Virus record (IMG/VR): IMGVR_UViG_3300012017_000779
Coordinates: 18,179 to 82,178 of that record
Reading direction: 5' to 3' (one strand)
From: a virus
Length of the DNA: 64,000 bases
In this document: in pieces, positions 23,931 to 40,409 of the stretch
Numbering within the stretch: position 1 is the stretch's first letter
How the letters are laid out: each line of letters begins with the position of its first letter
Notes under the pieces: model-generated
What the model was told of the DNA's origin: nothing
The model's database searches: none
Seen by the model: only the letters and a program-made list of their open reading frames with translations
Position numbers and translations under genes: made by a program

Positions 23931-23940
23931 AATTAATTAT

Positions 23941-26900
23941 TTATAAAAATTCAACTTGTCCACCTTCTGCCATAAAAGCTCTAATTTGATCTTCAGACAT
24001 GTATGTTATTTTTTCACCACCCTCAGCATAAGTTAATTCATCTTCTTCATCTTCTTCTGTATAAGGATCATAATATTCTTCTTCATCTATGTATCCACCA
24101 TATTGTGCAGATCTACTGTTCCACATTTGACCTTGTTCATCAGGTCTATATAATCCTGAATTAGTATCATAATCTCCTTTATCTCTACTAGGATCAGAAG
24201 CATAAAGATTATTAGAACTTAAGTTTTCATACATTTCATTTTCTTTTTTTCTACTTTCTATATTTTTTCTTATACCATCTATAACATCTACACCTGCATT
24301 AAATGTTTGTAGTCTTGCTTCATTTTTTGATGTATCAGCATTAGCACCAAAAGCAAGGTCTTTTTTATTTTCTACATCAACAGCATACATATCATTAAAG
24401 GATGGTTTATCTTCATTTATTTGAAGATTTCCACTTTTATCTTTTATAACTCCAGGTTTTTCACCAGTCAATGGATTTCTATAATCTTTATCTATTACTC
24501 CTGGTTGTTTTATATCTTGAATATTATTTCCAAAGTCAGATCCTGTAGATCTTTTTTTAACAACTTTACCCATAAAATCTACACAATCTCCAGCTGCATT
24601 TTTAGTAGAACCCATTGGACATTCTCCTGGACTCATAGAAGTTTGAAAACCATCTTCTGCTCTAGGAAGAAACATATCTAAATTACCACCATATTGCATT
24701 TCAGTATTTCTTGGTCCTGATGTATTAATTAATTGATCAGATGAAAAAGGAATTCCTTGTAATTCTTTTGATTGAGTATTTCTTAATTGATTCATTGTAT
24801 CCTGATTAGATTTAATATCTAATCTTCCTGTATTACGATAAGGATGATCTAAAGGAAAATCTGCATAAGGATCATATTTTTTAATTGGCTTACCACCTAT
24901 TGGATTACCATATTCATCTAAACCTTGCATTCTAAGTTTTAAATTATTTATAAAACCATAACCTTGTCTTCCAGATCTTTGATTTTTATTATTTTCTCTA
25001 GTATCTTCAGGATAATTATCTCTAACTGGTTTTTTTGCACCTTGACAATTTGGTGAATTAGGAAAATCTAAACAATATCTATCACGACCTCTTTGAGAAG
25101 CATCAGTACCTTTTGATGTAGTAATAGGTTGACCAGATTGACCATTAAAATACATAGTATATTTTTTTGGTCTACCTGACCAGAATCTAGTTTTATCTAC
25201 ATTTATACTAGATAAGTTACCCATATTAATAGGCATAACAATTGTCTTTCCTGTTCTTGGATCATAAACTCTTTGAATTTCATTTCTATAAGTTCTTTGT
25301 GGACTTAATATATTTCCGGGAAAATAATTTTCAATAAATTTTCTAACTCCACCACCTCTTTGAAAATAAGGATCAGTTGTATCTATAGAATTTGAATAAT
25401 CCATATCTTGTTGAGTAGGATCATAACCACCTTGATTAAATTCATATAAATCAGGATTCTCACTATCTACAAAACCTCCATTTTCAAGATTAGGATCAAA
25501 AAATCTTCCAAGTCTTTCCATAAATGATGGATCTCTATAATAATAATCAGATTTCTTTTTTGTTTTTTTAGTAGTAGTTTTCTTTTTATTAGTAGTTGTA
25601 AATTTAGGAATTTGATTTTCAGGAATTATAACTTTATTTTTTTTAATTTCTATTAAAGTAGGAGAAGAATTTCTTTTTACTTCTGGTTTATAAACACTAC
25701 TTATTATTGGTGTATTTGCTACAGTTGCATTTGGATTAACTGTTGCTTGTGTAATTACTTCTTTAGAAGTACCCGTTGGTAAAGTTGAAAATTTTCCTGG
25801 TTGTAAATAATCAGGTATTTTATCACTATTAGCATCTGTTGTAAAAAAACCATGAGGTAAAAGTGTACCTTGTTTTGGTAAGTCTGTACTTTGAGATTTA
25901 TTTATTATAGTTGCAACAGTACTTGACACTGTACTTTGTGAAGATTTAACAACAGGTTTTTGTGATACTACATCTGGATTATTTCCATTAGCAATATCTA
26001 CAAGTGGAGAATATCCATAAAAATCTATTCTATATTTACTTGGTTTTCCTGTTAACCAATTTGATTTTCTAACATCTACACTATAAGAAGGATGATCATA
26101 AGAATGCATTTCATTATTGCTATTTTCATTTCTTCTTGGAAAACAATTTGTTTGTCCATTTTCATCTTCAAAACATGTATTGTTTCTTTCATTAAATTGT
26201 CCTTTAACAGCATAATCAGTTGCATCTACATAACCATCTTTATTATAATCTCCTTCTTCAAATGTTGTTGTAGGATAATCATTAACATTAAAATAATCTA
26301 TATTATCTTCTCTATCTCTTCTATTTTGACCTGTTATAAAATCTTTTAATTGGTTTGCTCTATATTTCAACTCATTACCACGAACAACTTTAGGATCTCT
26401 TGAACCTGCAGAACCACCTCTTCTCATCATATCATTTTGAGGTTGCATTTGTTGTTGCATCATTTGATCATATTCTTGTTCAGCTTGTTGTTTTAAGTTA
26501 AACATTTCTGTTTCTTTCTTTAAACTACTTATAAAATTATTTAGTTTTTGTTTTCTAATTTTTTTACCAGTAGGATCTCCTGCTTCAGGATCTTCATCAG
26601 ATTTTTTTTCTTCACCACCTTCTGCTTTTTTTGCTAATTTTAAAATAGAATTAACATAAACTCTTTTATTTCTTTTATAATTTCCTCCCATTTTCATTTC
26701 AGGAGGTGCATCTAAAGCATATTCACTAGATACATCAGATTCTTCTTCTTCTTCTTCAGAATTATCTTCATTTTCATATTCACTATTTTGATTTATATCT
26801 TTACTAGCATAATGATTATAATACATTCCTGTTGCAGGATCTACAGTTCCATTTAACATATCTGCCATATTATATGGTAAATAAGTTTCTATTTCTGGAA

Positions 26901-27909
26901 ATACTATACCAGGAGCAGTAGGATTAAAAGGATATGTAACTTGACCATTTTGTTGTATTTCTGTATCAACATCTTCTACTTCTTCTCCATCTTGAGCTTT
27001 ATAAAGTCCACCATAAGCCATTTGTCCACCATACTTTTCTTCATCATCATCTTCCTCTTCTTCTTCATCTTCATCTTCATTTAATAACATATCAGATACA
27101 AAACTATTATTTTGAGTATCTTCAGCAGCATCTACTTCTTCTTGTGATTCATAAGGCTCTTCTTCAACAACTTCTTCTTCAACAACTTCTTTTTCATCTT
27201 CATCTTCATCAAAATCATATTCATAATCAGAACCATTTTGTTCAGTTAAATAATTTTTTACTTGACTTACTAAATTTATAGCTTCCATTGGATCTACATC
27301 ATAAAAGTTTGCTAATTTAAAAGCAATCTGTTGTTCATCAATATCATTATTTAAGTCATTAGAAATTATATTAACTAATTCATCTTGTGATAAATCTTTT
27401 TTTTCTTCTGAATTAGAACCAGGATAACCCATTTCACTAACATCAGGTACTCCACCTAATTGATATTTAGGAAAAGTACCATTTTTAATACGTTGTAAAG
27501 CATTATACTGACTTTGTGTTGCTAAATTATTATTTTTTATTACAGCTTCTATTATTTTTTCATGATACTTTCTAGTTGATGGACTTATATTAGATATATT
27601 TAATACATCTTGAAAAAATGCTGGATTTTTTATTTGAATTTTTGATGATGCTGTAGTTGCTTTTTTAATTCCTTCACCATATTTAATAGCTCCTGCAGCT
27701 CTAGCTGCATTATTAGATTTGTCTATAGCTTTTGCTAGTTCAGTTGCCTTTTGTATTTTATCAGATTCATCAAAATTCATAATAAGTTGTTTTCCATATT
27801 TTAAAACATCTTTTACAATTCTTCCTTTTTGAGCTTTTTCTAAAAACTGACCTGTCTTATTAAGATACTTACCATTTCCATCAGGTGATTTATAAATTCT
27901 AACTTTCAT
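23941..27909 (-). CDS. Acidic, low-complexity internal protein (1322 aa) punctuated by xxxxGG motifs
   Basis: ORF track; Glu/Asp tracts, many GG motifs and an internally duplicated module. Confidence 0.65.
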   Translation of the reverse strand: MKVRIYKSPDGNGKYLNKTGQFLEKAQKGRIVKDVLKYGKQLIMNFDESDKIQKATELAKAIDKSNNAARAAGAIKYGEGIKKATTASSKIQIKNPAFFQDVLNISNISPSTRKYHEKIIEAVIKNNNLATQSQYNALQRIKNGTFPKYQLGGVPDVSEMGYPGSNSEEKKDLSQDELVNIISNDLNNDIDEQQIAFKLANFYDVDPMEAINLVSQVKNYLTEQNGSDYEYDFDEDEDEKEVVEEEVVEEEPYESQEEVDAAEDTQNNSFVSDMLLNEDEDEEEEEDDDEEKYGGQMAYGGLYKAQDGEEVEDVDTEIQQNGQVTYPFNPTAPGIVFPEIETYLPYNMADMLNGTVDPATGMYYNHYASKDINQNSEYENEDNSEEEEEESDVSSEYALDAPPEMKMGGNYKRNKRVYVNSILKLAKKAEGGEEKKSDEDPEAGDPTGKKIRKQKLNNFISSLKKETEMFNLKQQAEQEYDQMMQQQMQPQNDMMRRGGSAGSRDPKVVRGNELKYRANQLKDFITGQNRRDREDNIDYFNVNDYPTTTFEEGDYNKDGYVDATDYAVKGQFNERNNTCFEDENGQTNCFPRRNENSNNEMHSYDHPSYSVDVRKSNWLTGKPSKYRIDFYGYSPLVDIANGNNPDVVSQKPVVKSSQSTVSSTVATIINKSQSTDLPKQGTLLPHGFFTTDANSDKIPDYLQPGKFSTLPTGTSKEVITQATVNPNATVANTPIISSVYKPEVKRNSSPTLIEIKKNKVIIPENQIPKFTTTNKKKTTTKKTKKKSDYYYRDPSFMERLGRFFDPNLENGGFVDSENPDLYEFNQGGYDPTQQDMDYSNSIDTTDPYFQRGGGVRKFIENYFPGNILSPQRTYRNEIQRVYDPRTGKTIVMPINMGNLSSINVDKTRFWSGRPKKYTMYFNGQSGQPITTSKGTDASQRGRDRYCLDFPNSPNCQGAKKPVRDNYPEDTRENNKNQRSGRQGYGFINNLKLRMQGLDEYGNPIGGKPIKKYDPYADFPLDHPYRNTGRLDIKSNQDTMNQLRNTQSKELQGIPFSSDQLINTSGPRNTEMQYGGNLDMFLPRAEDGFQTSMSPGECPMGSTKNAAGDCVDFMGKVVKKRSTGSDFGNNIQDIKQPGVIDKDYRNPLTGEKPGVIKDKSGNLQINEDKPSFNDMYAVDVENKKDLAFGANADTSKNEARLQTFNAGVDVIDGIRKNIESRKKENEMYENLSSNNLYASDPSRDKGDYDTNSGLYRPDEQGQMWNSRSAQYGGYIDEEEYYDPYTEEDEEDELTYAEGGEKITYMSEDQIRAFMAEGGQVEFL

Positions 27910-27926
27910 AACTACATATTATATAT

Positions 27927-27958
27927 TTAATATACTAAATTTTAATTTATTCAATAAA
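27927..27958 (-). promoter_or_regulatory. Putative promoter TTTA-N20-TATATTAA upstream of 27909
   Basis: Shares tatatatttaatatactaaa exactly with the 40997 site; the palindrome TAAACTTA-A-TAAGTTTA (27955-27971) overlaps it. Confidence 0.7.
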
Positions 27959-27968
27959 CTTAATAAGT

Positions 27969-30900
27969 TTAATTAATACCTTTTGCTTTCATATAATTTA
28001 AAATACGTTTGTATTGATTATAAGTAATATCAGGTTTTGTTTCAAGACCTTTTTCATTAGCATGTTTTTTTATATAGGCATTTCTAATTTGCTCATGTGT
28101 AATAATACTTTTTAAATTTAAATTATATTTTTTTGCAATTGGAGCATAATACTCTACAAATGAAATAACTTGTTGATCAGTTAATGGTTTTTTTTGTGTA
28201 TCTCCTTGAAATTCTACACCAATACTAAAATCATTAACATCTTCTCTTCCATTCCATTTTGATTTTCCTGCATGAAAAGAAACTTGTTCAGGAGATGCAT
28301 ATATAGTTCTAGAACCATCTTCTTCAATAACTACGTGAGAAGAATTTTGTCCAGGTGTCATAAATTGTTTTTTTACTTCAGCATTATTAGTAATAGGATC
28401 ATTATAAGCAGTATGATGTAATACAAAGTTTTTAATTTCATTTTTTAATTTATGACCAGCTTTATAACTGTCATCTTTTTTTGTTCTTACATTAGGCATA
28501 TCATATACATACGTTTCTTTAAATTTGTTAACAGGAACATTATATTTTTTTATATATAAACCATTACCTCCAGAAGTATTTTCAGCATCATAATTAACCA
28601 ACCTTTGTTTAGTTAACTTACCATCTTTATAAGAAAGACCTCTTGCATATGTTCCATTATCAAGACTCCATGCTTCAAGATATTTACTGTTTCCTTTTAA
28701 TCTTTTAAATTCTTTTTTAATATGAGAAACACTTCCTGATACCAATGTTTGTTCTTTTGTTGTAGGATTAACAAAAACAACTCTACCTCCTAAAATAGAA
28801 CCATAATAATCTTCTTCTGCTTTACCTTTTTTTGTTAAAATATTTAAAGCACCTTTTTTAAGTTTATTATTTTCTAATATTGTTATTTGAGGTTGCCAAA
28901 ATTTTGGATTTCCAGATCTTGCTCCATCTAAAGATATGTCATCAATAGAAACAATTTTATTCATAAATGTTTTAGAAAATTTCCAATCTTTATTATTTTT
29001 TAAATTTTTATAAATACCAGTATGTAATACTCCTTTGTTATCTAAAGCAAATACACTATTATCATCATTTATACCATTTACATTTGTTTTTTTATTATAA
29101 GGTTTTATATTAGCTGCCTTACTAAATGGATGAAATGTTGTAAATTCTAATCCATCAGATTCTATATCTTGATATTGACCTCTATTTCTACTACCTAAAA
29201 CTAAGTTAGATGTTGGAACAGTTTGTTGTTTAAACTGTCTATTTGGTTGATCATTTACATTTAATATAGTTTGTGATAAAGTTGGATTTTTATAATAATC
29301 TTTTACATTTATAGGTTCAGGTGATTCTATAACTTTTTTATCTTTAGTTTCTACTATACCCCAAGTTTGAAGTTTACGGTCTAAACCATTATTAAAAAGT
29401 TTTTTTTGATTATCCAACCAGTTATCAAAACTTTTTATTTCTTTATAAGTTGATTCAAAAAATGAATCTTCTGGTTTAACAATTTTATTTTTTATATTAG
29501 AATTATTATTTTTAGTTATTTGTAAACTATTTTTAATAGGTTCAACTTTACTTATATTTTTTTCTTTTAAAATATTTTCTTTTGCAATGTTTTGCAATTT
29601 ATTTTTTAAATCTAATTCAAAATTAGATTTAGTTTCAATAGTAGGTATTTTTCTAATAGTTTTTTTTATAGGTTCAGTTGTTTGTTTATATTTTTTTATA
29701 TTTTTATCATCAACTTTTTCATAAGCTATATCATCAATATCTTCCATACCAAAAAATCTTTTAAATCTTTCTGTATATGTAGGATCTCTTGTATAATCAT
29801 AAGATTTACCTTTTTTATTAAAACCACCATTTTGATAATTATCTATTTCCTCTACTATATAACCACCTTCTTTATATCTTTGTACTTCTTCTGGTGTTAG
29901 ATCTAATTCTACATAATCATTATTTTCTCCACCTTGTTTATATTGCCCTCTAAAACCTGTATTATAATCTTTTTTTAATTTTTCTAAATAGTTTTTATAT
30001 TCTATTTGTTTGTTTCTATCTAAATTTTTATAATCCATAAATGGATAAGTTTCATCAACATCAAACATTTTTTGACCTTTTTTTCCTACTACAGTATTTC
30101 TATCTAATAATATTGGTAAATCATAAGAATTATTAGGCATAAATTGAGAATTCCAATAACCATTATTAACTGCTAATTTATTCAATTTTCTACTTTTTAA
30201 ATTATGATATTTATTAAACCAATCTTGATAATTACCTGTACTATAATCTCTTGGTGAATGCAATTTAAACATATACTTTCCATAACCAGATGGTACGTCT
30301 GAAGTATATAAAGCATCTGCATAACTCATATCTGGCATACCTGATCTATAACCATATTGTTGCATAGGTACATGAGTAGCTTGATATTTAGCAATTGAAA
30401 TAGGATCATCAAAATTTACTCCTGCATTTTTCATATTTTCAAATTCAGATATTTTATTATTCCATGAAGGTTTTGACATATCATAAGGTCTATTAGTATA
30501 GTCCATAACTCCTTTACCATCTCTAGGTACTGAACCATCAACACCTCTAAATTTAGTTGCTTCTCTATTTAAAGCTAGTTTAGTTAACTTATTTGTTCTA
30601 TCTGTACTTCTAGCTGCATAATTTAAATCTTGAAAATCTTTACCTATAAGCTCTTCTTTTTGTAAGTTTTTAATAAATTGTCTTCTTGGTAAAAAACCAG
30701 AAATTTCTTTTAAATTTTTAGAAGAAAAATCATATTTAGAAAGGTCTATTTTAGGAGAACCTGATAATTGTTTAGGAACTCCTTTAAATCCTTTTATTAA
30801 ATTTTTAGATGCATTATAAGCAGGTTTAAAAACTTGTTTACCTAAACCTAATCCTAAAAAACCTAGTGCATTAACTCCTGTTTCAAAAGAAGCATCTCCT

Positions 30901-33152
30901 AAAGTATTCCATGAAGGATTATTAATAAAATTACTTTGAGATTTTACAACATCACTTTTTGAATCTCCTTGATTATAAAGAGCATCAGCTCCAAAATATG
31001 CTGCTACAGAATTACCAAGATTTAATTTACCTCCTGTTGCATCTGTAATTTTTTTACCTAATGGTAAAGGTGCTTTTACAGATGTTTTTGTTGCAGTCCA
31101 TAAAGGTTTTAACCATTTTCCTGCTTGTAAAACCATTTTTGGTGCACCTCCTATTCCTGTCATTGGAGAATCTTCAAAAGGAGATCTACCTTTAGGTTGT
31201 GGTTTATAATTACTTTCTGGAGCATCTGTAAATAGTCTATTTAAAATATTAGAATGTTCCCAGTCATCTTGTCTTTTATTAAATTGACCTACTGTTTCTT
31301 TAATACCTTCATTATTAGCAAGACCTTTCTTTATTTTACTATCTTCTTTTTCTTTTTGAATTGCTTTTTCTTTTTCTTCTGAACTTTTTTTAACAAAAGC
31401 TTGTATATTATTTTTATATTTAGGATCAAAAGACCAGTCTAAAGGTTTTTGATAAATATTATTTACTCTTGTATTATCAGAAGAATTAGATGAAACTTTA
31501 GACATACTATCATCAACAGGTTTAGCCATCTTATCTAAAACTGCTGTCCTAGCTTTAACATCTCCTTTATTTAAAGGTTGATATTTACCAGACCTATTCC
31601 AATCTACTTGCCACTTACCATTAACTTTTTTGTAATTACCCTTACTTCCTTTTACAGTGTATATACCACCATCTTGGTAATTATCTATTTCTTCTACTAC
31701 ATAACCACCTCTTCTATATTCTTCTATCTCATCTTCATCAAGATCAGCTTCTATAAATCCTGGAGAAACATCTTTATAATTTTCTGCAAAATAATTAGCA
31801 TCTTCATTTGAATCAAATCTTATAGCTTCATTAGATTCCGGACCATAGTCTCCAAGTTGTAGTACACCATTCTCATCTTGTATTTGTGGTACTGCATAAT
31901 TATCCATGCTTGCCATGTAATGAGAACCAGTATCTCCATTATCAAATTGATAAGGATTGTCTGGTAGGTTAATCATTCTTTCAGCAGCAGGGTTACCAAA
32001 CTCATTAGCATATGCTAGTCTAGCTTTCATCATACCAGTCATTGCATCTTTGTTACCACCATCTTGTTTTTTAGGAAACATAGATTTACCATCTTTTTCA
32101 AATTGTTCTTCACGGACTCTTGCTTCTCCTTCTTCTGTAGTTGGATCTTGATACATTAAAGCATTTGCACCTGGAAAACCTTCTGTAAATTCTTGTAATT
32201 TATTTCTTGGTATAAATTGTAAATTAGGATCAGCTTTGATCATTGCATCTGTTTGTGCTTCTAATTCAGTATTTCTTCTGTCATAGTAATTACTTATTGC
32301 TTGATCTGATGCTACAGTATTATTAGGTCTTTGACCTAAAAAACCAGCAGTACTTGCACCACCTCCTAAGTTTTGCAAATGGTGATACTTTTCATGTTCT
32401 GTCCACCAACCATTATTTTCTATTGATCCAGGTCTTGTATCTTGACTTATTTCACCTGTTGCTGCATTATATCCTGTATTCTCATCAGTTTCAATTACTT
32501 CTGGTTCTTGCCATTCTACACATTGACCATTATAAATAATATATCCTTCTGGACATTTTGATTCTCCACCATCTTGTGCATGTACTAATCCTTGACCACC
32601 ACACTCATGACATGTAGTAATATCTTTACCACCATCTTCAGCATCCCATTTCCAGCCACATTTTTTACATGTTACTTTTTTAGTAAGTAAAGCACCACCT
32701 TCTGCATAATACTTTGAGTTAGGATCAAATACTTTATTCTTTCTAGACTTAGGTTTTGCAAATAAAAAATTTTGTGTAAATAATTTATTAGTTGCACTAA
32801 GACTTCTTGAGTAACCTTTAGAATTTTTTTTATTAGGCATTTTTAAAACAGAACCACCTTTACGCATAAAATCTTCAGGTTGTTCTAACTCAGGTTGCAT
32901 TCTATAGTTAGTAGTAATTTCTTCTCCGGGTTTTAAATTTTTAGAAGCATAGATAAATCTTTTATTATCTATTTTTTTACTATAAGCTGTAGGATTTTTT
33001 TCATTATGATTATGATTTCTTCCAATTTCAGATGCGGGTTGATCATCAACATGAGCTAATCCAATTACCTCACCTTTTTTAAAAGGTGCTTTAGTAAATA
33101 AACCTTTACCAGCTCCTTTTATACTAGATTGTTTTGTTATATATTTTTTCAT
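27969..33152 (-). CDS. Modular polyprotein (1727 aa): SET domain, Zn ribbon, HExxH zincin, unknown modules, C-terminal N-acetylmuramoyl-L-alanine amidase (Amidase_2)
   Basis: SET: GAGKGLFT...NHNEKNPT...GEEITTNY. Zn ribbon: CKKC..CHEC. Zincin: HEKYH (32382-32396)...EGEAR. Amidase: VLHHTA...SSHVVI...FHAG...SIGVEF...ITHEQI...KPD. Confidence 0.85.
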   Translation of the reverse strand: MKKYITKQSSIKGAGKGLFTKAPFKKGEVIGLAHVDDQPASEIGRNHNHNEKNPTAYSKKIDNKRFIYASKNLKPGEEITTNYRMQPELEQPEDFMRKGGSVLKMPNKKNSKGYSRSLSATNKLFTQNFLFAKPKSRKNKVFDPNSKYYAEGGALLTKKVTCKKCGWKWDAEDGGKDITTCHECGGQGLVHAQDGGESKCPEGYIIYNGQCVEWQEPEVIETDENTGYNAATGEISQDTRPGSIENNGWWTEHEKYHHLQNLGGGASTAGFLGQRPNNTVASDQAISNYYDRRNTELEAQTDAMIKADPNLQFIPRNKLQEFTEGFPGANALMYQDPTTEEGEARVREEQFEKDGKSMFPKKQDGGNKDAMTGMMKARLAYANEFGNPAAERMINLPDNPYQFDNGDTGSHYMASMDNYAVPQIQDENGVLQLGDYGPESNEAIRFDSNEDANYFAENYKDVSPGFIEADLDEDEIEEYRRGGYVVEEIDNYQDGGIYTVKGSKGNYKKVNGKWQVDWNRSGKYQPLNKGDVKARTAVLDKMAKPVDDSMSKVSSNSSDNTRVNNIYQKPLDWSFDPKYKNNIQAFVKKSSEEKEKAIQKEKEDSKIKKGLANNEGIKETVGQFNKRQDDWEHSNILNRLFTDAPESNYKPQPKGRSPFEDSPMTGIGGAPKMVLQAGKWLKPLWTATKTSVKAPLPLGKKITDATGGKLNLGNSVAAYFGADALYNQGDSKSDVVKSQSNFINNPSWNTLGDASFETGVNALGFLGLGLGKQVFKPAYNASKNLIKGFKGVPKQLSGSPKIDLSKYDFSSKNLKEISGFLPRRQFIKNLQKEELIGKDFQDLNYAARSTDRTNKLTKLALNREATKFRGVDGSVPRDGKGVMDYTNRPYDMSKPSWNNKISEFENMKNAGVNFDDPISIAKYQATHVPMQQYGYRSGMPDMSYADALYTSDVPSGYGKYMFKLHSPRDYSTGNYQDWFNKYHNLKSRKLNKLAVNNGYWNSQFMPNNSYDLPILLDRNTVVGKKGQKMFDVDETYPFMDYKNLDRNKQIEYKNYLEKLKKDYNTGFRGQYKQGGENNDYVELDLTPEEVQRYKEGGYIVEEIDNYQNGGFNKKGKSYDYTRDPTYTERFKRFFGMEDIDDIAYEKVDDKNIKKYKQTTEPIKKTIRKIPTIETKSNFELDLKNKLQNIAKENILKEKNISKVEPIKNSLQITKNNNSNIKNKIVKPEDSFFESTYKEIKSFDNWLDNQKKLFNNGLDRKLQTWGIVETKDKKVIESPEPINVKDYYKNPTLSQTILNVNDQPNRQFKQQTVPTSNLVLGSRNRGQYQDIESDGLEFTTFHPFSKAANIKPYNKKTNVNGINDDNSVFALDNKGVLHTGIYKNLKNNKDWKFSKTFMNKIVSIDDISLDGARSGNPKFWQPQITILENNKLKKGALNILTKKGKAEEDYYGSILGGRVVFVNPTTKEQTLVSGSVSHIKKEFKRLKGNSKYLEAWSLDNGTYARGLSYKDGKLTKQRLVNYDAENTSGGNGLYIKKYNVPVNKFKETYVYDMPNVRTKKDDSYKAGHKLKNEIKNFVLHHTAYNDPITNNAEVKKQFMTPGQNSSHVVIEEDGSRTIYASPEQVSFHAGKSKWNGREDVNDFSIGVEFQGDTQKKPLTDQQVISFVEYYAPIAKKYNLNLKSIITHEQIRNAYIKKHANEKGLETKPDITYNQYKRILNYMKAKGIN
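29823..31710. repeat. 46-bp direct repeats (29823-29868 and 31665-31710) encoding the linker GGY(V/I)VEEIDNYQ(D/N)GG
   Basis: 42/46 nt identical, 1842 bp apart and in frame. Confidence 0.85.
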
Positions 33153-36100
33153 TATCTTGGGGATACTTGGATTTTAGCATCAAATACTTTAATTATCATA
33201 TTAACATCATTTACAACTCCAACAGGTGCTGCATTTTTTGTTAAATTTAAAAAATTTAAATAACTTCTAAACTTTTTTCTTTGTAATGGTGGTTTAGCAT
33301 AATTTAAATTTGTAGGAGTTAATATTTTTTTATAACCACTAGCATCTGTTATCCATATATTTCTTTCAATATAATTTCCAGACAATACAGTTGTACCAGG
33401 AACTAATGGTCCTAATGGTGGATAACCTGAACCTACAGGAAATTCACCACGGTCTGCAGTAATATCCCAAAATTGATTAAATTTATATTTACTTTCTTCT
33501 TTAGAAAACAATATGTCATAAGAAGCAAAATTTGTTGTGTTTAATTTAGGATATGTTAAACTTAAAGTTACATTATTTTTAGGAAATATATTTAAGTTTA
33601 AGTATCCAGAAACTTGTTCATTATTAAATACAACTACTTTATCAAAGTTATAATCTAAAATTTTAAATTGGTCAACACAATTAATACTAGATCTTTTATA
33701 ACATTCTAATATATATTCAAATGATCTTATAGTAGTTACTGTTTGTCCAGTAATGTGAGGAAATTCAATTTCAAAAGGATATGGTGTATCATAAAAATTA
33801 CAAAAGTTGTTACATATAAAATTATGTTTCCATATTGTATTTTGCTTACCTAAGTCTCCGGTTGTTAAAAAATTATTTTTAGTTCCCATAGTTAAACTAG
33901 GATGCCAATCATGAAATGAAACCCAAACTTGTGTCTTAGGATCATAACTTACTGTCCAAGAAGCATCTTCAAATAAGAAAGGATCTCCTAATAAATATCT
34001 ACCTTGTCCATTTAATGTAAAATAATCTCCTTTACCATTATCTTTACCATATGTTATTAAAGGTATATAAGCAACTGTACCAGGTGCTCTTGGAATTGGA
34101 TCAGTAACTTCTCTTAATCTATAATCTTTTTTAGAAAAATATAACATTGAGTTTTCACTATCATACATTGATTGACAACCTATACCTGCTACTGGATTAT
34201 CCTGATATGGATAATCAGGAAAATCTTCAGTAAGTTTATATGGTAAAAATAAATTAAACCACCACTTTAATCCTGCAGATGATATTTCTTGTAGTCCTTG
34301 ACCATAAGTAAAAACCTTACCTTGATTTTGTGCTATATAAAATATACCAATAGGAGTAGATATAACAGATAATCTATTTTGTGATGAACCATATTCATAT
34401 GATTTATCAGCATTTGTAACAGATTGTCCAGGTTGTGAAAATAATCCACCATCTCCAATAGTTAATTTAGTTCCTAAATCAGTTTGTAACTGATCAGTAC
34501 CTTGAAACATTAAAGGACTATCATTTTTAAATGTAATTAATATACCACTTTTATTTACACTTTTTACACCACTTACTTGTGATTTAAATTCTTTATAATT
34601 ATTTGCTAAATATATAAACCAACTATCTTTAAATGATTCATCTTGTTGTTGTAAAGAATAATATATTCTATCAGGATAATAAGTATAACAAAGTTGTGAA
34701 ACCTTTGGATTATAATATCTACTTTGTAAAGTACCTTGAGAAAAATATTGAGTAAAAGCTTTAGATATACTTAAAGAATAATCATATCTATATTCATTAC
34801 CTCTAGTTATAATTGCTGGATCAATATTAAACATACGTACAGTATCCGTATATCTATATGGATCATAATGTTTTTCTCCTTCTAGTATTCCTTGTTGTCT
34901 AAAGTCTACTAATACATCTGACTCAACAAAAAAATCTTTAACACTAGAATTAAATATATAAAAGTTAGCATCAGGAACACTAATGTCTCGAGTAGAACCA
35001 TAATTTCCTTCATCATCTACTATATAATTATAACCTCTCCAATCAAGTTGATAATAATCTCTTGGCCAAGGACCTGTTCCTGGAGGGTTTGAATTAAATA
35101 AATTTCGTAAATCAGTTAAATTACTTACTAAAACTGATGGGTCATATTCAATACTATTTATAAAAAATCTTGCATTAGGAATCATATTATACAATGTATA
35201 ATTAAATTCATAACCATCAGGTTGTTGCCACAACCAATCATAAAAATAAAAAAATGTATTTTTTTCAGTATATCTATTTATAAAAGTATCTCCACCAAAA
35301 AATATAGGAGTTTGACCTAGTCTAAACCAAGATAAATTACTATTTCCTGTTGTAGGATTAAATATTGTAGGACAATCACGACCAGCATTTACAGTAACAA
35401 AATTATTTTCTGGTGTTGGATTAGCTGCTGTTGGTTGTACATTAAAAGTCATTTTTTGTTCACATGGAGTAATAGGTATTTGTTTGATACCTTCTAATTG
35501 TCCATATTGATTTCTAATTCTTACTTTAATACCTGCATAGTGACTTGCTATTGTTCTATTAAAAGGAGTATCTATATTACTAAAAGAAGGTAATCCAGAA
35601 GAAGAAGTTGATTGTAGTAATGTACCTAATGTAACTAATGAATTATCAGCACCAGTTAAAGCCGTTGGAAGTGATGGAAGTGGAGGAATAGGACTAATAT
35701 TTATAAAATCAGGACCATCTGTAACAGCTCTTCCTGTTTCAGTTCTTAAAACAACTGTATCAGATCTTTTTAAATTATTAATACTATATGATTTATAAAC
35801 ACCACTACTATTTTGATATAAAGGTACATCTTGTATATTATCTCTAATATAAAAAGCATCTTCTATACTATATCTAAAAATATTTGCAGAAGGTTCCGGA
35901 ATAAAATTACCATAAAAACCATAAGATATGCCTTGTAATGCATATTGTTTATATCTTATAACTGCTAATAATAATTTTTTAGCAGCGTCTGCTCCTCTAG
36001 AAAAATAATATGTAAGTTTTCCAACTGCATTAAAAGCTCCACTTAAAAGTTTACCAAGTGATTGTCTATCTCCTAATTCATTTTCATATTCAATTGATAC

Positions 36101-38689
36101 TGTTTGAGCACCAGGTACAATTGATGCAGCTGCATTAACAGTAGAATTAATTGTATCAGGAGAAGCTACACCAAGAGATGTTAAATTTAAAAGACCACCT
36201 GGAGAAAGAAAATATAAAGGCATACCAGGAATAAGAGGAGGTATACCAGTATTATATGGAACATTTACAGCTGTAGCATAAGCACCTGCACCTGCAGCAT
36301 TAGGTATTTCAACAAGAGAACCACTACCTAATGCTAAAGGAAGTATATATGTTCCACCATTAAGAGTAGGTTTACCTGTCTTTTTTTTAGTTTTTCCAAT
36401 ATTTGATAGTATAGCTTCAATTATTCCACCTACAATCATAATTGTTACTGCTGTATCACTTAATAACTTAAACTGTGGATGATCACTTGGTACAATAAAT
36501 TGTTGTTGAGAAGTTCCATTTAATTGACCATAAAGTTTTAATTCACTAACTGATAAAAAAGGTGTTCTAAACATTGTATCAGGTGAATGAAAAGTCATTA
36601 TATCTTTTGGCACAGTTTGATTTATAACAGGATCTCCATTATCTTGTGCACCTAGTGTTCTTGGTATTCTTATATATGGATCATTATAACCAGCCATATG
36701 TCCATTTTGAGTACTACTTGATGGAATTATAGTATTAAATGGATAATTAGGATATAATCCTTGAGATTTATTTAAAGCTACAGAACCTTTTATTTCAAAA
36801 GTTCTAAGATTATTTAACATCCCTTTTGCAATAATAGATTTACTACCTTCTCTTGAGCCTCTTAGTATTTCATAACCAACTATTCCAGGAATATCATTTC
36901 CTTCATTATCTTTTGGATAAGTAATATTTTCAAAAAAAACTCCCATGAGTCTAATGTGATTATCATTATTTAATGTAGCAGTTGAAGGATTAGCTCTAAA
37001 ATGATAAGTGTTTAGGTTTAATGCATTATCTGGAAATTTATGATGTCTTATATTTTTATTACATAAATCAAATGCTGTAGTTGGTAAATTTGTTAAAGGA
37101 TCAATTGGAAGAGGAGTCCAACATTGTGAAGTTGAGTTCCAAACATCATCTTTATTATCAGGATATTTTTCATTAGATTGCCAATAACCCATTTTACCTG
37201 TAGCAATTACTACACCACCATCAGGTAGAATAGTACCAGGATTACCTGTTTGTGATGCTGTATTAAATACTTCAAACAAATGATCATCAGTTGTTAAACT
37301 ATTAATATTTGTTGCAGTAGCATTAGATAATATAGTTGTACTTTCTGGTAATCCATTTTGAACAGGATAGTTTTCAGAAATTCTTCCAGGAATATGATAT
37401 GATGAAGATTTATCTCCTGTATCATAAACCCATCTAATAAAAAAACAATATACTTCATCTCTTAAATATGATCCTTTACCTCCTCCTTTAACATAATAAT
37501 TTCCAGGATATTCAATAGAAGCCCATTTAGAAGTAATTAAATTTGCTAAAGGTTGATAATTAAAATCAAGTTTTGATGTTGGACCAACTCTTAACAAATA
37601 ATTATTTACTTCTGATATCTGATCTGATTTTTCAAATATAGGAGTTTGTATTGGTAAAAAAGATACAGGAACTGTAATTAAATCTTCTCTAATTTGATCT
37701 AACTCAACTACATTAGTATTAGTAGAATAAAAACCAATTTGTTTAGCTACAGTACCTTGATTAATATTTTGTACAACAACTAAAATAAATTCATCAAAAT
37801 TTTCAGAATCTGCATTTATTGAAATTCTAATAGCTCCTTGTAAATCATCAGGTGACCATACTGGTTGTGTATTACTTGCAGAAAAATAATCAGTTACTTT
37901 TTGACCTTTAATAGCATATGCTATACATGCATAATATGTTCCGTTTCTTAATGTACCTCCAGAACTTCCTAAAGTTACATTAATACAAGGTGTAGTCATA
38001 AATCTTGCTATTCTGATTTTACTACAATCTAATACATTTGTATTAGTACAAATTTCACAATCATTAACTATTGGACAATCTTGAATCCATTGTACTCCTG
38101 GCCATAGTATAGGAGTATTTACACCATTACTATAATAGTTTACATTTACTGGTGCTGAAGAATTACCAAAATATGTATATGATGGTGGTATCCAAGTTTG
38201 AGGATCTCCAACATTTAAAAATCTATCTGGATTTAAACCATCTGCAAAATATACTTGCCATGTACAATCTTCTTTTTCTCTTGATACACCTGATATTAAA
38301 AATCTTTTATCAAAACTTAAACAAGCATCTTGTACAATTGGTTGATATATACATCTATTTTCTTGTAATAAACCAATTTCAGACATAATAGGTCTACCTT
38401 GATTATCATGACCTGCAGTAAAAATTATCCATTTATCAGAAAATAAATAAATACAACCTATAATGTATTTATCAGTAACTGCTGTTTGCATAGTTGCACC
38501 TGTTACAGCACATAAAAAATTTGATGCTTCATTTGATAATGTACCTAAGTCACCTTCAGAAGTATTATTAACAGCATTACGGGCATGTGTCCACATACCA
38601 TCATTTACAAATGTAGGATCTGAATCTTTATTTAATCCTTTAGTAAATGTATGTGTTATATTTTGTCCTGAATTATCTGATTCTGCCAT
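33152..38689 (-). CDS. Tail stabilisation / muzzle protein (1845 aa)
   Basis: N-terminal TFTKGLNKD...ARN and C-terminal WTVSYDP..WVSFHDWHP blocks typical of crAss-like stabilisation proteins; lies after the ring protein genes. Confidence 0.8.
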   Translation of the reverse strand: MAESDNSGQNITHTFTKGLNKDSDPTFVNDGMWTHARNAVNNTSEGDLGTLSNEASNFLCAVTGATMQTAVTDKYIIGCIYLFSDKWIIFTAGHDNQGRPIMSEIGLLQENRCIYQPIVQDACLSFDKRFLISGVSREKEDCTWQVYFADGLNPDRFLNVGDPQTWIPPSYTYFGNSSAPVNVNYYSNGVNTPILWPGVQWIQDCPIVNDCEICTNTNVLDCSKIRIARFMTTPCINVTLGSSGGTLRNGTYYACIAYAIKGQKVTDYFSASNTQPVWSPDDLQGAIRISINADSENFDEFILVVVQNINQGTVAKQIGFYSTNTNVVELDQIREDLITVPVSFLPIQTPIFEKSDQISEVNNYLLRVGPTSKLDFNYQPLANLITSKWASIEYPGNYYVKGGGKGSYLRDEVYCFFIRWVYDTGDKSSSYHIPGRISENYPVQNGLPESTTILSNATATNINSLTTDDHLFEVFNTASQTGNPGTILPDGGVVIATGKMGYWQSNEKYPDNKDDVWNSTSQCWTPLPIDPLTNLPTTAFDLCNKNIRHHKFPDNALNLNTYHFRANPSTATLNNDNHIRLMGVFFENITYPKDNEGNDIPGIVGYEILRGSREGSKSIIAKGMLNNLRTFEIKGSVALNKSQGLYPNYPFNTIIPSSSTQNGHMAGYNDPYIRIPRTLGAQDNGDPVINQTVPKDIMTFHSPDTMFRTPFLSVSELKLYGQLNGTSQQQFIVPSDHPQFKLLSDTAVTIMIVGGIIEAILSNIGKTKKKTGKPTLNGGTYILPLALGSGSLVEIPNAAGAGAYATAVNVPYNTGIPPLIPGMPLYFLSPGGLLNLTSLGVASPDTINSTVNAAASIVPGAQTVSIEYENELGDRQSLGKLLSGAFNAVGKLTYYFSRGADAAKKLLLAVIRYKQYALQGISYGFYGNFIPEPSANIFRYSIEDAFYIRDNIQDVPLYQNSSGVYKSYSINNLKRSDTVVLRTETGRAVTDGPDFINISPIPPLPSLPTALTGADNSLVTLGTLLQSTSSSGLPSFSNIDTPFNRTIASHYAGIKVRIRNQYGQLEGIKQIPITPCEQKMTFNVQPTAANPTPENNFVTVNAGRDCPTIFNPTTGNSNLSWFRLGQTPIFFGGDTFINRYTEKNTFFYFYDWLWQQPDGYEFNYTLYNMIPNARFFINSIEYDPSVLVSNLTDLRNLFNSNPPGTGPWPRDYYQLDWRGYNYIVDDEGNYGSTRDISVPDANFYIFNSSVKDFFVESDVLVDFRQQGILEGEKHYDPYRYTDTVRMFNIDPAIITRGNEYRYDYSLSISKAFTQYFSQGTLQSRYYNPKVSQLCYTYYPDRIYYSLQQQDESFKDSWFIYLANNYKEFKSQVSGVKSVNKSGILITFKNDSPLMFQGTDQLQTDLGTKLTIGDGGLFSQPGQSVTNADKSYEYGSSQNRLSVISTPIGIFYIAQNQGKVFTYGQGLQEISSAGLKWWFNLFLPYKLTEDFPDYPYQDNPVAGIGCQSMYDSENSMLYFSKKDYRLREVTDPIPRAPGTVAYIPLITYGKDNGKGDYFTLNGQGRYLLGDPFLFEDASWTVSYDPKTQVWVSFHDWHPSLTMGTKNNFLTTGDLGKQNTIWKHNFICNNFCNFYDTPYPFEIEFPHITGQTVTTIRSFEYILECYKRSSINCVDQFKILDYNFDKVVVFNNEQVSGYLNLNIFPKNNVTLSLTYPKLNTTNFASYDILFSKEESKYKFNQFWDITADRGEFPVGSGYPPLGPLVPGTTVLSGNYIERNIWITDASGYKKILTPTNLNYAKPPLQRKKFRSYLNFLNLTKNAAPVGVVNDVNMIIKVFDAKIQVSPR

Positions 38690-38691
38690 TT

Positions 38692-39747
38692 TTATATAAC
38701 TCTAGTGTTTCTAAAACTTCTTGGATGTTCATTATTTGGTCTATGACTTGTAAACATATCATAATATTTACTATGCATAGCTCTTCTATTTGTCCACCAA
38801 ATTTCTTCAAGTTCACTAAAGTTTGGAGTATTAACTAAACTAAGTGCTTGATTTCTAGCAGCTTTTAATCTACCTTCTATTATCTGCATTCTTTGTGCAA
38901 CATCTTCACCATTCATTAATAAGTTTTCAAGAATTCTTGCTTTAAATGCATATTCATAATATTCATTTATAAGATCATGATCAGGAACTAATAAGTTTCC
39001 ATTATCATCTTCCATAGCTCCTTGATAATTTAAATAAACTTTACATGTGTCTAGTGTAGTAAATAAAAAACCACCTTTTATCCAACCTTCATCTAAAGTA
39101 TTTACATATAAATTTGGACAGTCACAAGAAATTTCTTGACTAGTTTTCATTCTTAATGGAAGAAGTGTACTATAGGTTCTTGTTTGTCCAGTATTTACTA
39201 TTTGAATAAGTTCAGATTTTTCTCCTTTACAGTTCATAAAAACTCTTGGCCTTATACAAGTATCTCCATAAGGATTAAGTGGATCATATGAGCTAGGAAT
39301 AGTTGGTGTGGGACATTCTGCAGCACAAGAATTAGTAGGACATGCTGCAGTATGATTACATGGATTAGAATTACATGTAGAACAGTTAATTGTAATAGGT
39401 GCACATACATTTACATTAGCTGGAGTTTCAACATAAGGTACTTCTTGTATATTAGTTCCACCAACCATTCCATTGTATCCTATACTTTCAGTAAATTCAC
39501 CACATAGTAATGCATAATTAAATACATAAAAGTCATCTGGTAATTTTACTCTACCATGACATACTTCTAATACAACTTCTTTAGTTTGATTAATTCTTAA
39601 ACCTAAATCATAGTTTAATTTTTTAGCTAACTTGATAAGCTGTTGAGGCTCTATCATGTTTTCTAATGCTAAAGTATTAAAGTCTATTGATACATCTTCT
39701 AAAACTGAGTCAAAAGTTCTGTACCGTAGTGTATAATTAAAGTCCAT
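38692..39747 (-). CDS. Tail ring/tube protein with a Cys-rich insertion (351 aa)
   Basis: GRVKLPDDF...VYLNYQG...DDNGNLLVPD pattern of crAss-like ring proteins; adjacent to the muzzle gene. Confidence 0.7.
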   Translation of the reverse strand: MDFNYTLRYRTFDSVLEDVSIDFNTLALENMIEPQQLIKLAKKLNYDLGLRINQTKEVVLEVCHGRVKLPDDFYVFNYALLCGEFTESIGYNGMVGGTNIQEVPYVETPANVNVCAPITINCSTCNSNPCNHTAACPTNSCAAECPTPTIPSSYDPLNPYGDTCIRPRVFMNCKGEKSELIQIVNTGQTRTYSTLLPLRMKTSQEISCDCPNLYVNTLDEGWIKGGFLFTTLDTCKVYLNYQGAMEDDNGNLLVPDHDLINEYYEYAFKARILENLLMNGEDVAQRMQIIEGRLKAARNQALSLVNTPNFSELEEIWWTNRRAMHSKYYDMFTSHRPNNEHPRSFRNTRVI

Positions 39748-40409
39748 TATCTAAGTGTATTTTGACTATCATCAGGTCCATCTGTTGGAATTGACATAGT
39801 CATAGTTAATTCTTTTATTACAAATTGTTCTACTTCAGAAAATAAATATTCTGGTAATGAGAAAGGTTCATCTTGTCTTACTGTACATTCTTTTGTATCA
39901 CATGTTTCAATAGTTCCTTCAAAGATTGCTTCCATTCTTATTGCTTCCCAATCTACATTAGGACAATATATGTAGCCATCTAAATACCAAAAATAAAAGT
40001 TTCTATTATATTTCCAAGTTGTAGTTTTAGTCATAGAAACCCAGGTACCTGGATCTGTTCTAAACATTTCTATACTACCATCTATTGAAGATGTGGTACG
40101 TATAATAGGTCCTGCCATTCCATTTAATATTCCTGGAATCTTTTCTTTTGATCTTTTAAAATAACAACCTGAATATACTCCAAGACAACCAGCTTCTACT
40201 TTATCTACATCTATTAATTCTATATAAGGAAGAACTCTAAATAAAGAACTAATTTTCATTAGTCTAAATTGATTGTCTTCTCTTTTAATTAATGTTTGTG
40301 AATATTTTAATAAAGATGAATATATTATTCTATCAGTTAAAAAAGCATCTTCTTTAACAGCTTTTAATGTATTTCTTACTCTTGATATTGTTTCACCAAT
40401 TGTTGTCAT
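39747..40409 (-). CDS. Tail ring/tube protein (220 aa)
   Basis: Y(F)WYLDGYIY, AIFE and the C-terminal PTDGPDDS pattern; translationally coupled to both neighbours. Confidence 0.65.
   Translation of the reverse strand: MTTIGETISRVRNTLKAVKEDAFLTDRIIYSSLLKYSQTLIKREDNQFRLMKISSLFRVLPYIELIDVDKVEAGCLGVYSGCYFKRSKEKIPGILNGMAGPIIRTTSSIDGSIEMFRTDPGTWVSMTKTTTWKYNRNFYFWYLDGYIYCPNVDWEAIRMEAIFEGTIETCDTKECTVRQDEPFSLPEYLFSEVEQFVIKELTMTMSIPTDGPDDSQNTLR

Follow-up and report, generated by a model that had tools for sequence, protein, structure and literature searches.

The window analyzed here, a 64,000-nucleotide stretch of the IMG/VR virus record IMGVR_UViG_3300012017_000779, carries a tightly packed, same-strand block of genes for tail ring proteins, a muzzle protein, and a protein that begins with a SET domain, followed by more giant proteins. 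The identity of this block was fixed by matches to the Pfam families CrAss_Ring_1 (34.5 bits) and CrAss_Ring_2 (82.8 bits), which mark the genes for crAss tail ring proteins 1 and 2 (38692..40409, minus strand). Directly upstream of the SET gene lies a gene for an 1845-aa homologue of the muzzle protein (33152..38689, minus strand), assigned through PHROG virion structural families and showing weak collinear similarity to crAss001 gp44; its stop codon overlaps the start codon of the SET gene (TAATG). The window shares the order ring 2, ring 1, muzzle, SET protein with roughly thirty contigs of related phages. Proteins of 1322 and 882 aa are neighbors of the SET protein. The phage is a freshwater crAss-like phage.

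The SET gene (27969..33152, minus strand) encodes a protein of 1727 aa, P0001, composed of an N-terminal SET domain, a long lysine-rich middle part, and a C-terminal amidase. The SET core (residues 1 to 98; 32859..33152, minus strand) is followed by a GG dipeptide (residues 99 and 100) and a conserved flexible linker (residues 101 to 153) ending in YYAEGG (together 32694..32858, minus strand), as delimited from the consensus in A1 and A2. The C-terminal domain is Amidase_2 (PF01510, N-acetylmuramoyl-L-alanine amidase; residues 1571 to 1689; 28086..28442, minus strand), recognized by Pfam, PHROG, and NCBIfam (61.3 to 64.4 bits versus a cutoff of 26; E = 1.6e-16 for the full-length protein and 1.8e-17 for a sub-region), in agreement with a sequence-only reading of this DNA, which had the protein ending in a peptidoglycan amidase. 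The best PHROG families for the C terminus were those labeled "endolysin" and "amidase," and the NCBIfam match was AmpD-like. Pfam and NCBIfam searches with six sub-regions of P0001 for further domains returned Amidase_2 alone. That reading had also called P0001 a virion-module polyprotein. The N-terminal placement of the SET domain within a virion gene block held. As to cleavage, GG dipeptides were only modestly enriched and some modules were bounded by xxGG motifs, but no evidence of processing was found.

The segment at 32870-33152 on the minus strand, which upon translation corresponds to residues 1 to 94 of the ORF, had been read as a minimal SET domain with GxG, NH, and GEEITxxY motifs, and all of these are indeed present. 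Motif I, the cofactor-binding GxG, is formed by G15-K16-G17 within GAGKG (33102..33110, minus strand). Motif III, H47-N48-H49-N50 (33003..33014, minus strand), contains the NH of RFINHS and aligns with the NHS of MLL1, and motif IV, GEEITTNY at residues 76 to 83 (32904..32927, minus strand), aligns with GEELTYDY of MLL1, which places the catalytic tyrosine at Y83 (E78-I-T-T-N-Y83). A reading of "HNH" as an HNH nuclease was rejected because the three stand side by side and line up with the NHS motif of SET enzymes.

Profile and structure searches agreed with the motifs. Isolated residues 1 to 104 matched Pfam SET (PF00856) with 32.9 bits (E = 9.2e-8; cutoff, 22.4 bits), the full-length protein scored 17.3 bits, which is under the cutoff, and precomputed PF00856 matches were present in many homologues. 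When PDB sequences were searched with the family profile, SET enzymes only were retrieved, among them MLL1 (E = 1.3e-8) and vSET (E = 1.4e-7). The AlphaFold model of the domain had a mean pLDDT of 84, with values above 90 for residues 1 to 88 and a drop in confidence beyond residue 90. In a Foldseek search of the PDB with this predicted model, vSET was the best match (E = 8.9e-6; TM scores, 0.62/0.64), and every match was a SET or PR domain. VIA-align superposed the predicted model on the solved SET domains of EZH2 (Z = 13.3), MLL1 (Z = 12.4), and vSET (Z = 12.2) with root mean square deviations of 1.2 to 1.9 A. In a model of residues 1 to 200, pLDDT was 50 to 60 after residue 98 and an isolated helix was predicted at residues 115 to 127; the idea that the linker completes the SET fold was rejected, as this model gave no sign of the linker packing on the domain. 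Judged by sequence and by predicted fold, with matches well outside what chance would give, residues 1 to 98 are confirmed as a genuine, very small SET-type domain.

Conservation was assessed in 190 distinct copies of the SET module. G17, N48, and H49 were conserved in all of them, E78 and Y83 in 99%, and G15 in 86%. The residue following NH was S in 50%, N in 35%, and D in 12% of the copies; the NHN of this phage, correctly picked out earlier as a departure from the usual NHS, is therefore a tolerated variant. A divergent paralogous subtype, the second copy in tandem-SET proteins, also keeps the cofactor and catalytic residues, and dN/dS of the module was approximately 0.15 to 0.5. The SET-I region is nearly absent: approximately 12 to 14 residues separate the strand ending at H34 from the NH motif, and upon superposition with VIA-align some 38 to 40 residues of MLL1 and some 24 residues of vSET in this region were without a counterpart in the phage domain. 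The short SET-I holds no conserved tyrosine for motif II (YxG), and H34 is invariant instead. In other SET enzymes the lysine channel has SET-I as one of its walls. Since SET-I varies among SET families, we counted the missing SET-I and motif II as a departure that does not disqualify the domain. The acidic tail QPELEQPEDF (residues 86 to 95; 32868..32897, minus strand), which is specific to this SET family, was 87 to 97% conserved at most positions (D94, 77%; F95, 96%) in a region of low model confidence, and it may possibly serve as a post-SET substitute, a candidate for the flank closing the cofactor and lysine pocket. The reduced SET-I wall with no conserved tyrosine, and the low confidence of the model beyond residue 90, both count against the reading that we prefer. 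Taking motifs, conservation, and modeled fold together, we infer catalysis: residues 1 to 98 are best explained as a working, stripped-down protein-lysine methyltransferase.

A close counterpart among characterized enzymes is vSET (A612L of chlorovirus PBCV-1; PDB 1N3J / 3KMA), likewise a viral minimal SET domain without pre- and post-SET zinc clusters. Both have the GxG, NH, and GEEITxxY motifs, and the predicted model superposed on vSET over 79 residues with a root mean square deviation of 1.6 A. However, vSET is a free protein of 119 aa from a eukaryotic virus, whereas the phage domain comprises approximately 95 aa fused in a 1727-aa protein, and the substrate of vSET is histone H3K27, whereas the bacterial host of the phage has no histones H3/H4. 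MLL1 and EZH2 (KMT2A and KMT6) were the best matches in the profile and structure comparisons, with approximately 30% identity over 76 to 84 aligned residues, and their SET-N and SET-C halves and catalytic motifs align with those of the phage domain. Both have partner subunits, a post-SET region, and a SET-I that runs to approximately 40 residues, all of which the phage domain lacks. Go1-SET of Methanosarcina mazei methylates MC1-alpha (PMC3980110) and is thus an example of a SET enzyme acting on a prokaryotic nonhistone chromatin protein, a plausible target class here, although it is cellular, free-standing, and of normal SET size, unlike the phage module. Phages have 0 occurrences in that review of prokaryotic SET proteins (PMC3980110).

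The SET module was found in 381 representative clusters of uncultured phage proteins and is widely distributed among uncultured crAss-like phages of freshwater and other environments. It was free-standing as a 113-aa protein in L070, and in other phages the same SET subfamily was fused to DHH or nucleotidyltransferase domains; one SET-DHH fusion sits amid DNA-methylase, kinase, and NUDIX genes. The SET domain was missing from 41 of the 120 cargo-position homologues compared, which opened with other modules instead. Where present, the SET domain was not always N terminal (residues 30 to 110, or as deep as residue 662), and some proteins had two copies. Relatives combined it with Amidase_2, GH24 lysozyme, YkuD, or VanY domains, and such varied wall-hydrolase partners would suit an ejection protein, which has to get through the wall. 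On these sequence comparisons the SET module is a shuffled cassette whose presence is optional. Its fusions, its solo form, and its optional presence argue for an autonomous enzyme rather than a part of the tail.

When 50,697 phage records were searched by tblastn with the SET domain, nothing matched at an E value below 0.08; the sole weak match, at that value, was to the unannotated record of Phage zth2-2, and no cultured phage with the module was found. Among 185,579 species genomes, a pattern scan hit just one, on a 4.4-kb MAG contig that is probably mis-binned phage DNA, which suggests that the module is essentially confined to viruses. A full-text literature search on SET domains in phages or crassviruses found no paper describing the module; a match to "crAss-like" together with "SET domain" was discarded, as it concerned immunoglobulin "C2-set domains." The view that a SET domain is unusual in such a gene calls for qualification, given the recurrence in 381 clusters and an automatic UniProt label, "SET domain-containing protein," on one protein with the module.

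The position of the SET gene is that of a cargo gene. In the Bacteroides phage ΦcrAss001, cargo protein C1 (gp45, PF25725) is a proven virion component whose N-terminal part occupies the tail barrel (PMC10172136), and the SET gene, like that of C1, lies immediately downstream of the muzzle gene (the gp44-gp45 order). In contrast to gp45, P0001 has SET and amidase domains, and gp45 has a strong predicted transmembrane helix, whereas none was clear in P0001 (best 19-residue Kyte-Doolittle window, 0.78 versus 1.73 in gp45). Similarity between the two proteins was limited to BLASTP E values of 0.6 or worse, P0001 did not match PF25725, and hhalign of eight P0001 module profiles with gp45 gave probabilities below 1%, with a gp45 profile that lacked depth (homologues only 96 to 100% identical). 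These searches thus gave no detectable similarity between P0001 and gp45. Since neither this similarity nor a clear transmembrane helix is present, we infer packaging from gene order only.

Phages inject RNA polymerases, ADP-ribosyltransferases, DNA-modifying enzymes, and wall hydrolases. Virion-packaged, injected examples are the T4 Alt ADP-ribosyltransferase, P1 DarB, the N4 and crAss virion RNA polymerases, and the T7 gp16 transglycosylase, which modify proteins of the host or breach its wall. To our knowledge none of these is a protein-lysine methyltransferase, nor has an injected one been described, and lysine methylation as a weapon between phages and bacteria has, as far as we know, barely been studied. 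The phage SET domain is not homologous to any of these enzymes; the logic, enzymes delivered with the DNA, would be the same. In our best explanation, to which we give an even chance, the SET module is a virion-borne, injected lysine methyltransferase, with packaging suggested by gene order and catalysis by the conserved residues. The SET domain would be an optional enzyme cassette heading a large mosaic protein, which most likely travels in the crAss-like virion and is ejected into the host before the DNA. During ejection the C-terminal amidase would cut peptidoglycan, and the SET module, attached or released, would reach the cytoplasm and use host S-adenosylmethionine (SAM) to methylate lysines of one or more proteins early in infection. 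Nucleoid-associated proteins or the transcription machinery are our guesses for the targets. Against this reading, a peptidoglycan amidase acts in the periplasm, where SAM is absent; a single polypeptide would need to span compartments or undergo cleavage. The closest parallel is vSET, which methylates host histone H3K27; PBCV-1 "encodes and packages" this enzyme, whose action on the host comes early in infection (PMC7019647).

An active SET domain might instead work in the producer cell on the phage's own proteins rather than on those of the host after injection, with its own lysine-rich polypeptide in cis or neighboring cargo proteins as substrates before or during packaging, for charge tuning, protease resistance, or control of folding. 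Proteins at the cargo position are very rich in lysine (11.9% in P0001 and 8 to 12% in its neighbors, versus 2 to 6% in tail and fiber proteins), most members have the SET domain fused in cis to such proteins, the doubled SET copies of some would fit as well, and SAM is certainly present in the producer cytoplasm. Lysine richness, however, also follows from the 28% G+C content of the genome and from an internal, DNA-contacting location, and a role tied to cargo does not fit the SET domains that stand alone or occur with DHH or nucleotidyltransferase domains in nonstructural neighborhoods. We consider this explanation unlikely.

That the domain is a SET-like fold without catalytic activity, retained for a structural or docking role such as that of a plug or adaptor by which the protein is loaded into the tail barrel or muzzle, is improbable. 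It would account for the near deletion of SET-I and the absent motif II tyrosine, and contact with the muzzle or ring would fit both the location of the N-terminal part of crAss001 C1 in the tail barrel (PMC10172136) and the conservation of the whole domain, QPELEQPEDF included, which far exceeds that of the remaining mosaic. Yet the cofactor and catalytic residues are 99 to 100% conserved in both paralogous subtypes, and the module is optional at the cargo position, can lie as far in as residue 662, and also occurs alone and in nonvirion contexts. Finally, that P0001 is not packaged and is a late, cell-bound multienzyme protein, for example, an oversized lysis or wall-remodeling protein whose SET domain acts late in the infected cell, would agree with a virion link drawn from gene order only, with the negative searches for similarity to gp45 and PF25725, with the lack of a clear transmembrane helix, and with the "endolysin" and "amidase" labels of its C terminus but is improbable for a gene that lies inside a tight ring-muzzle block of conserved order, is translationally coupled to the muzzle gene by TAATG, and encodes a 1727-aa mosaic with variable wall-hydrolase types, less like an endolysin than like virion-associated lysins and ejection proteins.

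The injected-methyltransferase reading can be taken further, and we put forward this extension tentatively. P0001 might carry the first particle-borne, injected phage protein-lysine methyltransferase and the smallest SET enzyme known (approximately 95 residues, no SET-I), which would methylate nucleoid, transcription, or defense proteins within minutes and so rewire the host, and which would form a single exchangeable unit of a modular "effector train" delimited by GG. If true, SET as an exchangeable cassette would make the cargo proteins of crAss-like phages the phage counterpart of polymorphic effector systems. If active, the domain would push the minimum size of a SET enzyme lower than known so far and thereby offer an attractive minimal scaffold for the study of how a lysine channel forms when SET-I is missing.

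Contigs from RNA libraries matched patches of the gene at 90 to 99% identity; these may stem from carried-over DNA, and expression levels cannot be read from them. Within the middle part of P0001, a 170-aa module (approximately residues 197 to 366; 32055..32565, minus strand) flanked by two QDGG motifs was missing from related sequences, and contigs of two RNA-library runs contained a joint that skips 510 nt at this module, with 12 nt common to both ends.

The 5' end of the P0001 ORF (1727 aa; 27969-33152, minus strand) encodes the putative SET domain, and residues 1 to 98 of its translation read MKKYITKQSSIKGAGKGLF...HNHN...GEEITTNYRMQPELEQPEDFMRK. The sequence-only reading had described a SET domain with a GxG motif, an NH motif with NHN for NHS, and GEEITxxY, in a protein ending in a peptidoglycan amidase. 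All of these elements were indeed found: G15-K16-G17, N48-H49 followed by N50 in place of the Ser of most SET enzymes, G76-E-E-I-T-T-N-Y83, and Amidase_2 at residues 1571 to 1689 (E = 1.6e-16). No domain could be assigned between SET and Amidase_2 with Pfam or NCBIfam. Profile search bore out the SET assignment for the isolated domain (Pfam SET, 32.9 bits, E = 9.2e-8; cut-off, 22.4 bits); full-length P0001 reached just 17.3 bits, under the cut-off. When PDB sequences were searched with a 29-member family profile, SET methyltransferases were the only matches (MLL1, 1.3e-8; chlorovirus vSET, 1.4e-7), and the alignments fell into two collinear segments, SET-N carrying GxG and SET-C carrying NHS...GEELTxDY. 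The AlphaFold model of the domain had a mean pLDDT of 84 and a pTM of 0.71, and in a second run on residues 1 to 200 pLDDT was >90 over residues 1 to 88. Its top Foldseek match in the PDB was vSET (3KMA; E = 8.9e-6), the matches listed being SET or PR domains, and VIA-align gave Z scores of 13.3 (EZH2), 12.4 (MLL1), and 12.2 (vSET), with an rmsd of 1.3 to 1.9 Å and about 30% identity over 76 to 84 residues. Sequence and structure prediction thus agree in pointing to a SET fold at the N terminus of P0001; a flexible linker is predicted past residue 98.

The source virus is a crAss-like phage, with Pfam CrAss_Ring_1 and CrAss_Ring_2 and a crAss-type portal, major capsid protein, and terminase; portal identity to the nearest isolates was just 25 to 33%. 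The window belongs to an 82-kb IMG/VR viral contig (about 69% complete; G+C, 28%), and the phage is contained in freshwater and sediment metagenomes. The upstream 1845-aa gene matches PHROG virion families, resembles crAss001 gp44 weakly but collinearly, and is a muzzle homologue; its stop overlaps the P0001 ATG as TAATG (33150-33154), which suggests translational coupling of the two genes. The order p193, ring2, ring1, muzzle, SET protein was kept in roughly thirty related viral contigs, followed there by homologues of the 1322-, 882-, and 999-aa proteins. Elsewhere in the window, an ORF of at least 3736 aa (1-11208, minus strand, open at the window edge) has a DprA-like domain at residues 3360 to 3536 (PHROG 768; E = 1.3e-45), and neither this ORF nor the 2338-aa one showed a recognizable RNA polymerase family.

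In ΦcrAss001, cryo-EM and mass spectrometry have proven that the virion contains cargo protein C1 (gp45), whose N-terminal part occupies the tail barrel in readiness for ejection (PMC10172136). The gp45 gene directly follows the muzzle gene, which is the position of the P0001 gene here. Neither sequence nor profile comparison revealed similarity of P0001 to gp45 or its Pfam family, and P0001 lacks a clear transmembrane helix; we therefore infer from gene order that it is a cargo protein. Further support comes from how tightly its gene is coupled to the muzzle gene and from its wall hydrolase. Ejection proteins of other short-tailed phages contain wall hydrolases. Our preferred reading, held at about even odds, is that the domain is an active minimal lysine methyltransferase that rides on a packaged protein, would be ejected with it, and would act on proteins of the newly infected cell. 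The closest precedent for such a predicted packaged phage SET is the chlorovirus, which "packages an enzyme (vSET)" (PMC7019647). An archaeal SET enzyme methylates the DNA-binding protein MC1-alpha (PMC3980110), which shows that such enzymes can act on chromatin proteins of prokaryotes.

Alternatively, the SET domain might modify its own Lys-rich cargo in the producer cell, which we consider unlikely. Lysine made up 8 to 12% of the proteins of three adjacent genes (882, 1322, and 1727 aa; 21282-33152) versus 2 to 6% of muzzle, portal, capsid, and fiber proteins. Bearing on the polyprotein idea of the sequence-only reading, GG dipeptides were modestly enriched in P0001 (17 observed versus 10.6 expected; z = 2.1) and were also enriched in its 1322-aa and 882-aa neighbors (z = 3.2 each), with [YH][AQK][EDQN]GG as the recurring context, and not in muzzle, portal, capsid, or fiber proteins. 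The module end of both paralogous SET subtypes was F-x-(K/R/Q)-x-G-G. In contigs of two RNA-library runs from different studies, 32055 was joined to 32566; the segment left out lies between two QDGG motifs and is exactly 510 nt long (170 residues), and 12 nt are shared at the joint. At these GG linkers, a 170-aa module (32055-32565, minus strand; about residues 197 to 366) has been gained or lost naturally and in frame. From the enrichment, the SET module ending, and the QDGG joint, it follows that xxGG sites mark module boundaries and are at least recombination joints. A motif of about 25 aa, ...L(D/T)xxE(I/V)xxY(R/K)xGGY(V/I)VEEIDNYQ(D/N)GG, occurs twice in P0001 (residues about 465 to 497 and 1085 to 1110; 31650-31760 and 29820-29900) and is also kept at module ends in many relatives. 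A 416-aa protein encoded among tail and fiber genes (45413-46663, minus strand; PHROG "protease," E = 6.2e-14) is a candidate for virion-protein processing, with no link to the GG sites.

As to the activity that the packaged-enzyme reading presupposes, when 1.84 billion representative proteins were searched exhaustively with HMMER, 381 clusters reached E ≤ 1e-3, and for 224 of these E was ≤ 1e-10. S9, I11, G17, H34, G44, N48, and H49 were invariant across 190 distinct domain copies, E78 and Y83 were conserved in 99%, and G15 was conserved in 86%. In six tandem-SET proteins (P0018, P0022, P0038, P0042, P0044, and P0121), the common type is N-terminal and a divergent paralogous type (…GICHVKNKPSTILGMYNHNKK…), which retains the same conserved residues, lies 130 to 330 residues downstream; motifs were intact in both. 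Pairwise dN/dS versus related phages was roughly estimated at 0.15 to 0.5. The main reservation about activity is the near-missing SET-I insert: only 12 to 14 residues, with no conserved Tyr among them in the family, separate the strand ending in H34 from the NH motif. About 38 to 40 residues of MLL1 and about 24 of vSET are without counterpart, so the phage domain is smaller than vSET, described as the smallest histone methyltransferase (PMC7019647). The family-specific acidic tail QPELEQPEDF (F95 conserved in 96%), along which AlphaFold confidence drops, might substitute for missing SET elements. That the domain is an inert structural fold is, on balance, improbable, given also its distribution.

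P0001 homologues are mosaics. The SET module was present in 79 of the 120 best, mostly from residue 1 and sometimes beginning at residues 30 to 110; in one contig (L004) it starts at residue 662 of the protein that the second gene past the muzzle encodes. The remaining 41 begin with other modules. A conserved alternative, MxNKKVL…DPxGQxxxPGxxTRIP…ITMQGVPYPV…FPGADYVDE(F/Y)PQM, replaces SET in P0031, P0033, P0036, P0060, P0063, and others and stands before SET in some proteins, e.g., P0196. Partner domains vary (Amidase_2, GH24 lysozyme, YkuD, VanY, and others). Phages that do not have the P0001 gene block encode two further kinds of fusion in which the same SET subfamily is C-terminal. Proteins of 650 to 750 aa combine it with a weak N-terminal DHH-family match (L078:8537-10621, L033:8417-10651, and L043:8396-10642), and the L078 gene is surrounded by DNA methylase, nucleotide kinase, and NUDIX genes; a 446-aa protein (L014:1870-3210) combines it with a weak match to nucleotidyltransferases. 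A 34.6-kb viral contig encodes a free-standing 113-aa SET protein (L070:9968-10309); where SET-I would be, this subtype has five extra residues (…LGSDYEF…), one of them a Tyr absent from the cargo-borne subtype. The variable partners, the fusions outside the block, and the free form argue for an autonomous cytoplasmic enzyme and against a structural component of the crAss tail.

Topology is a difficulty for the packaged-and-ejected reading, since the amidase needs the periplasm and SET needs cytoplasmic SAM, so that a single chain would have to reach both compartments or else be cleaved. The further alternative of a late enzyme that is not packaged seems very unlikely.

SET domains and virion-packaged vSET are already known; the novelty, in context and architecture, is that proteins of the phage virion block carry a trimmed SET as an interchangeable module, and a literature search found no paper on this. 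Matching PHROGs families exist, labeled "unknown function," and one relative carries the automatic database label "SET domain-containing protein [uncultured virus]." Among 185,579 prokaryotic species genomes, a pattern scan matched once, in a lake MAG (contig of 4.4 kb), and none of 50,697 deposited phage genomes had the module at E < 0.08. In the unannotated record of Phage zth2-2 (OL791268.1; L083:5401-6279), the C-terminal part of a 292-aa ORF is weakly SET-like (39.8% identity over residues 9 to 84; E = 0.08).
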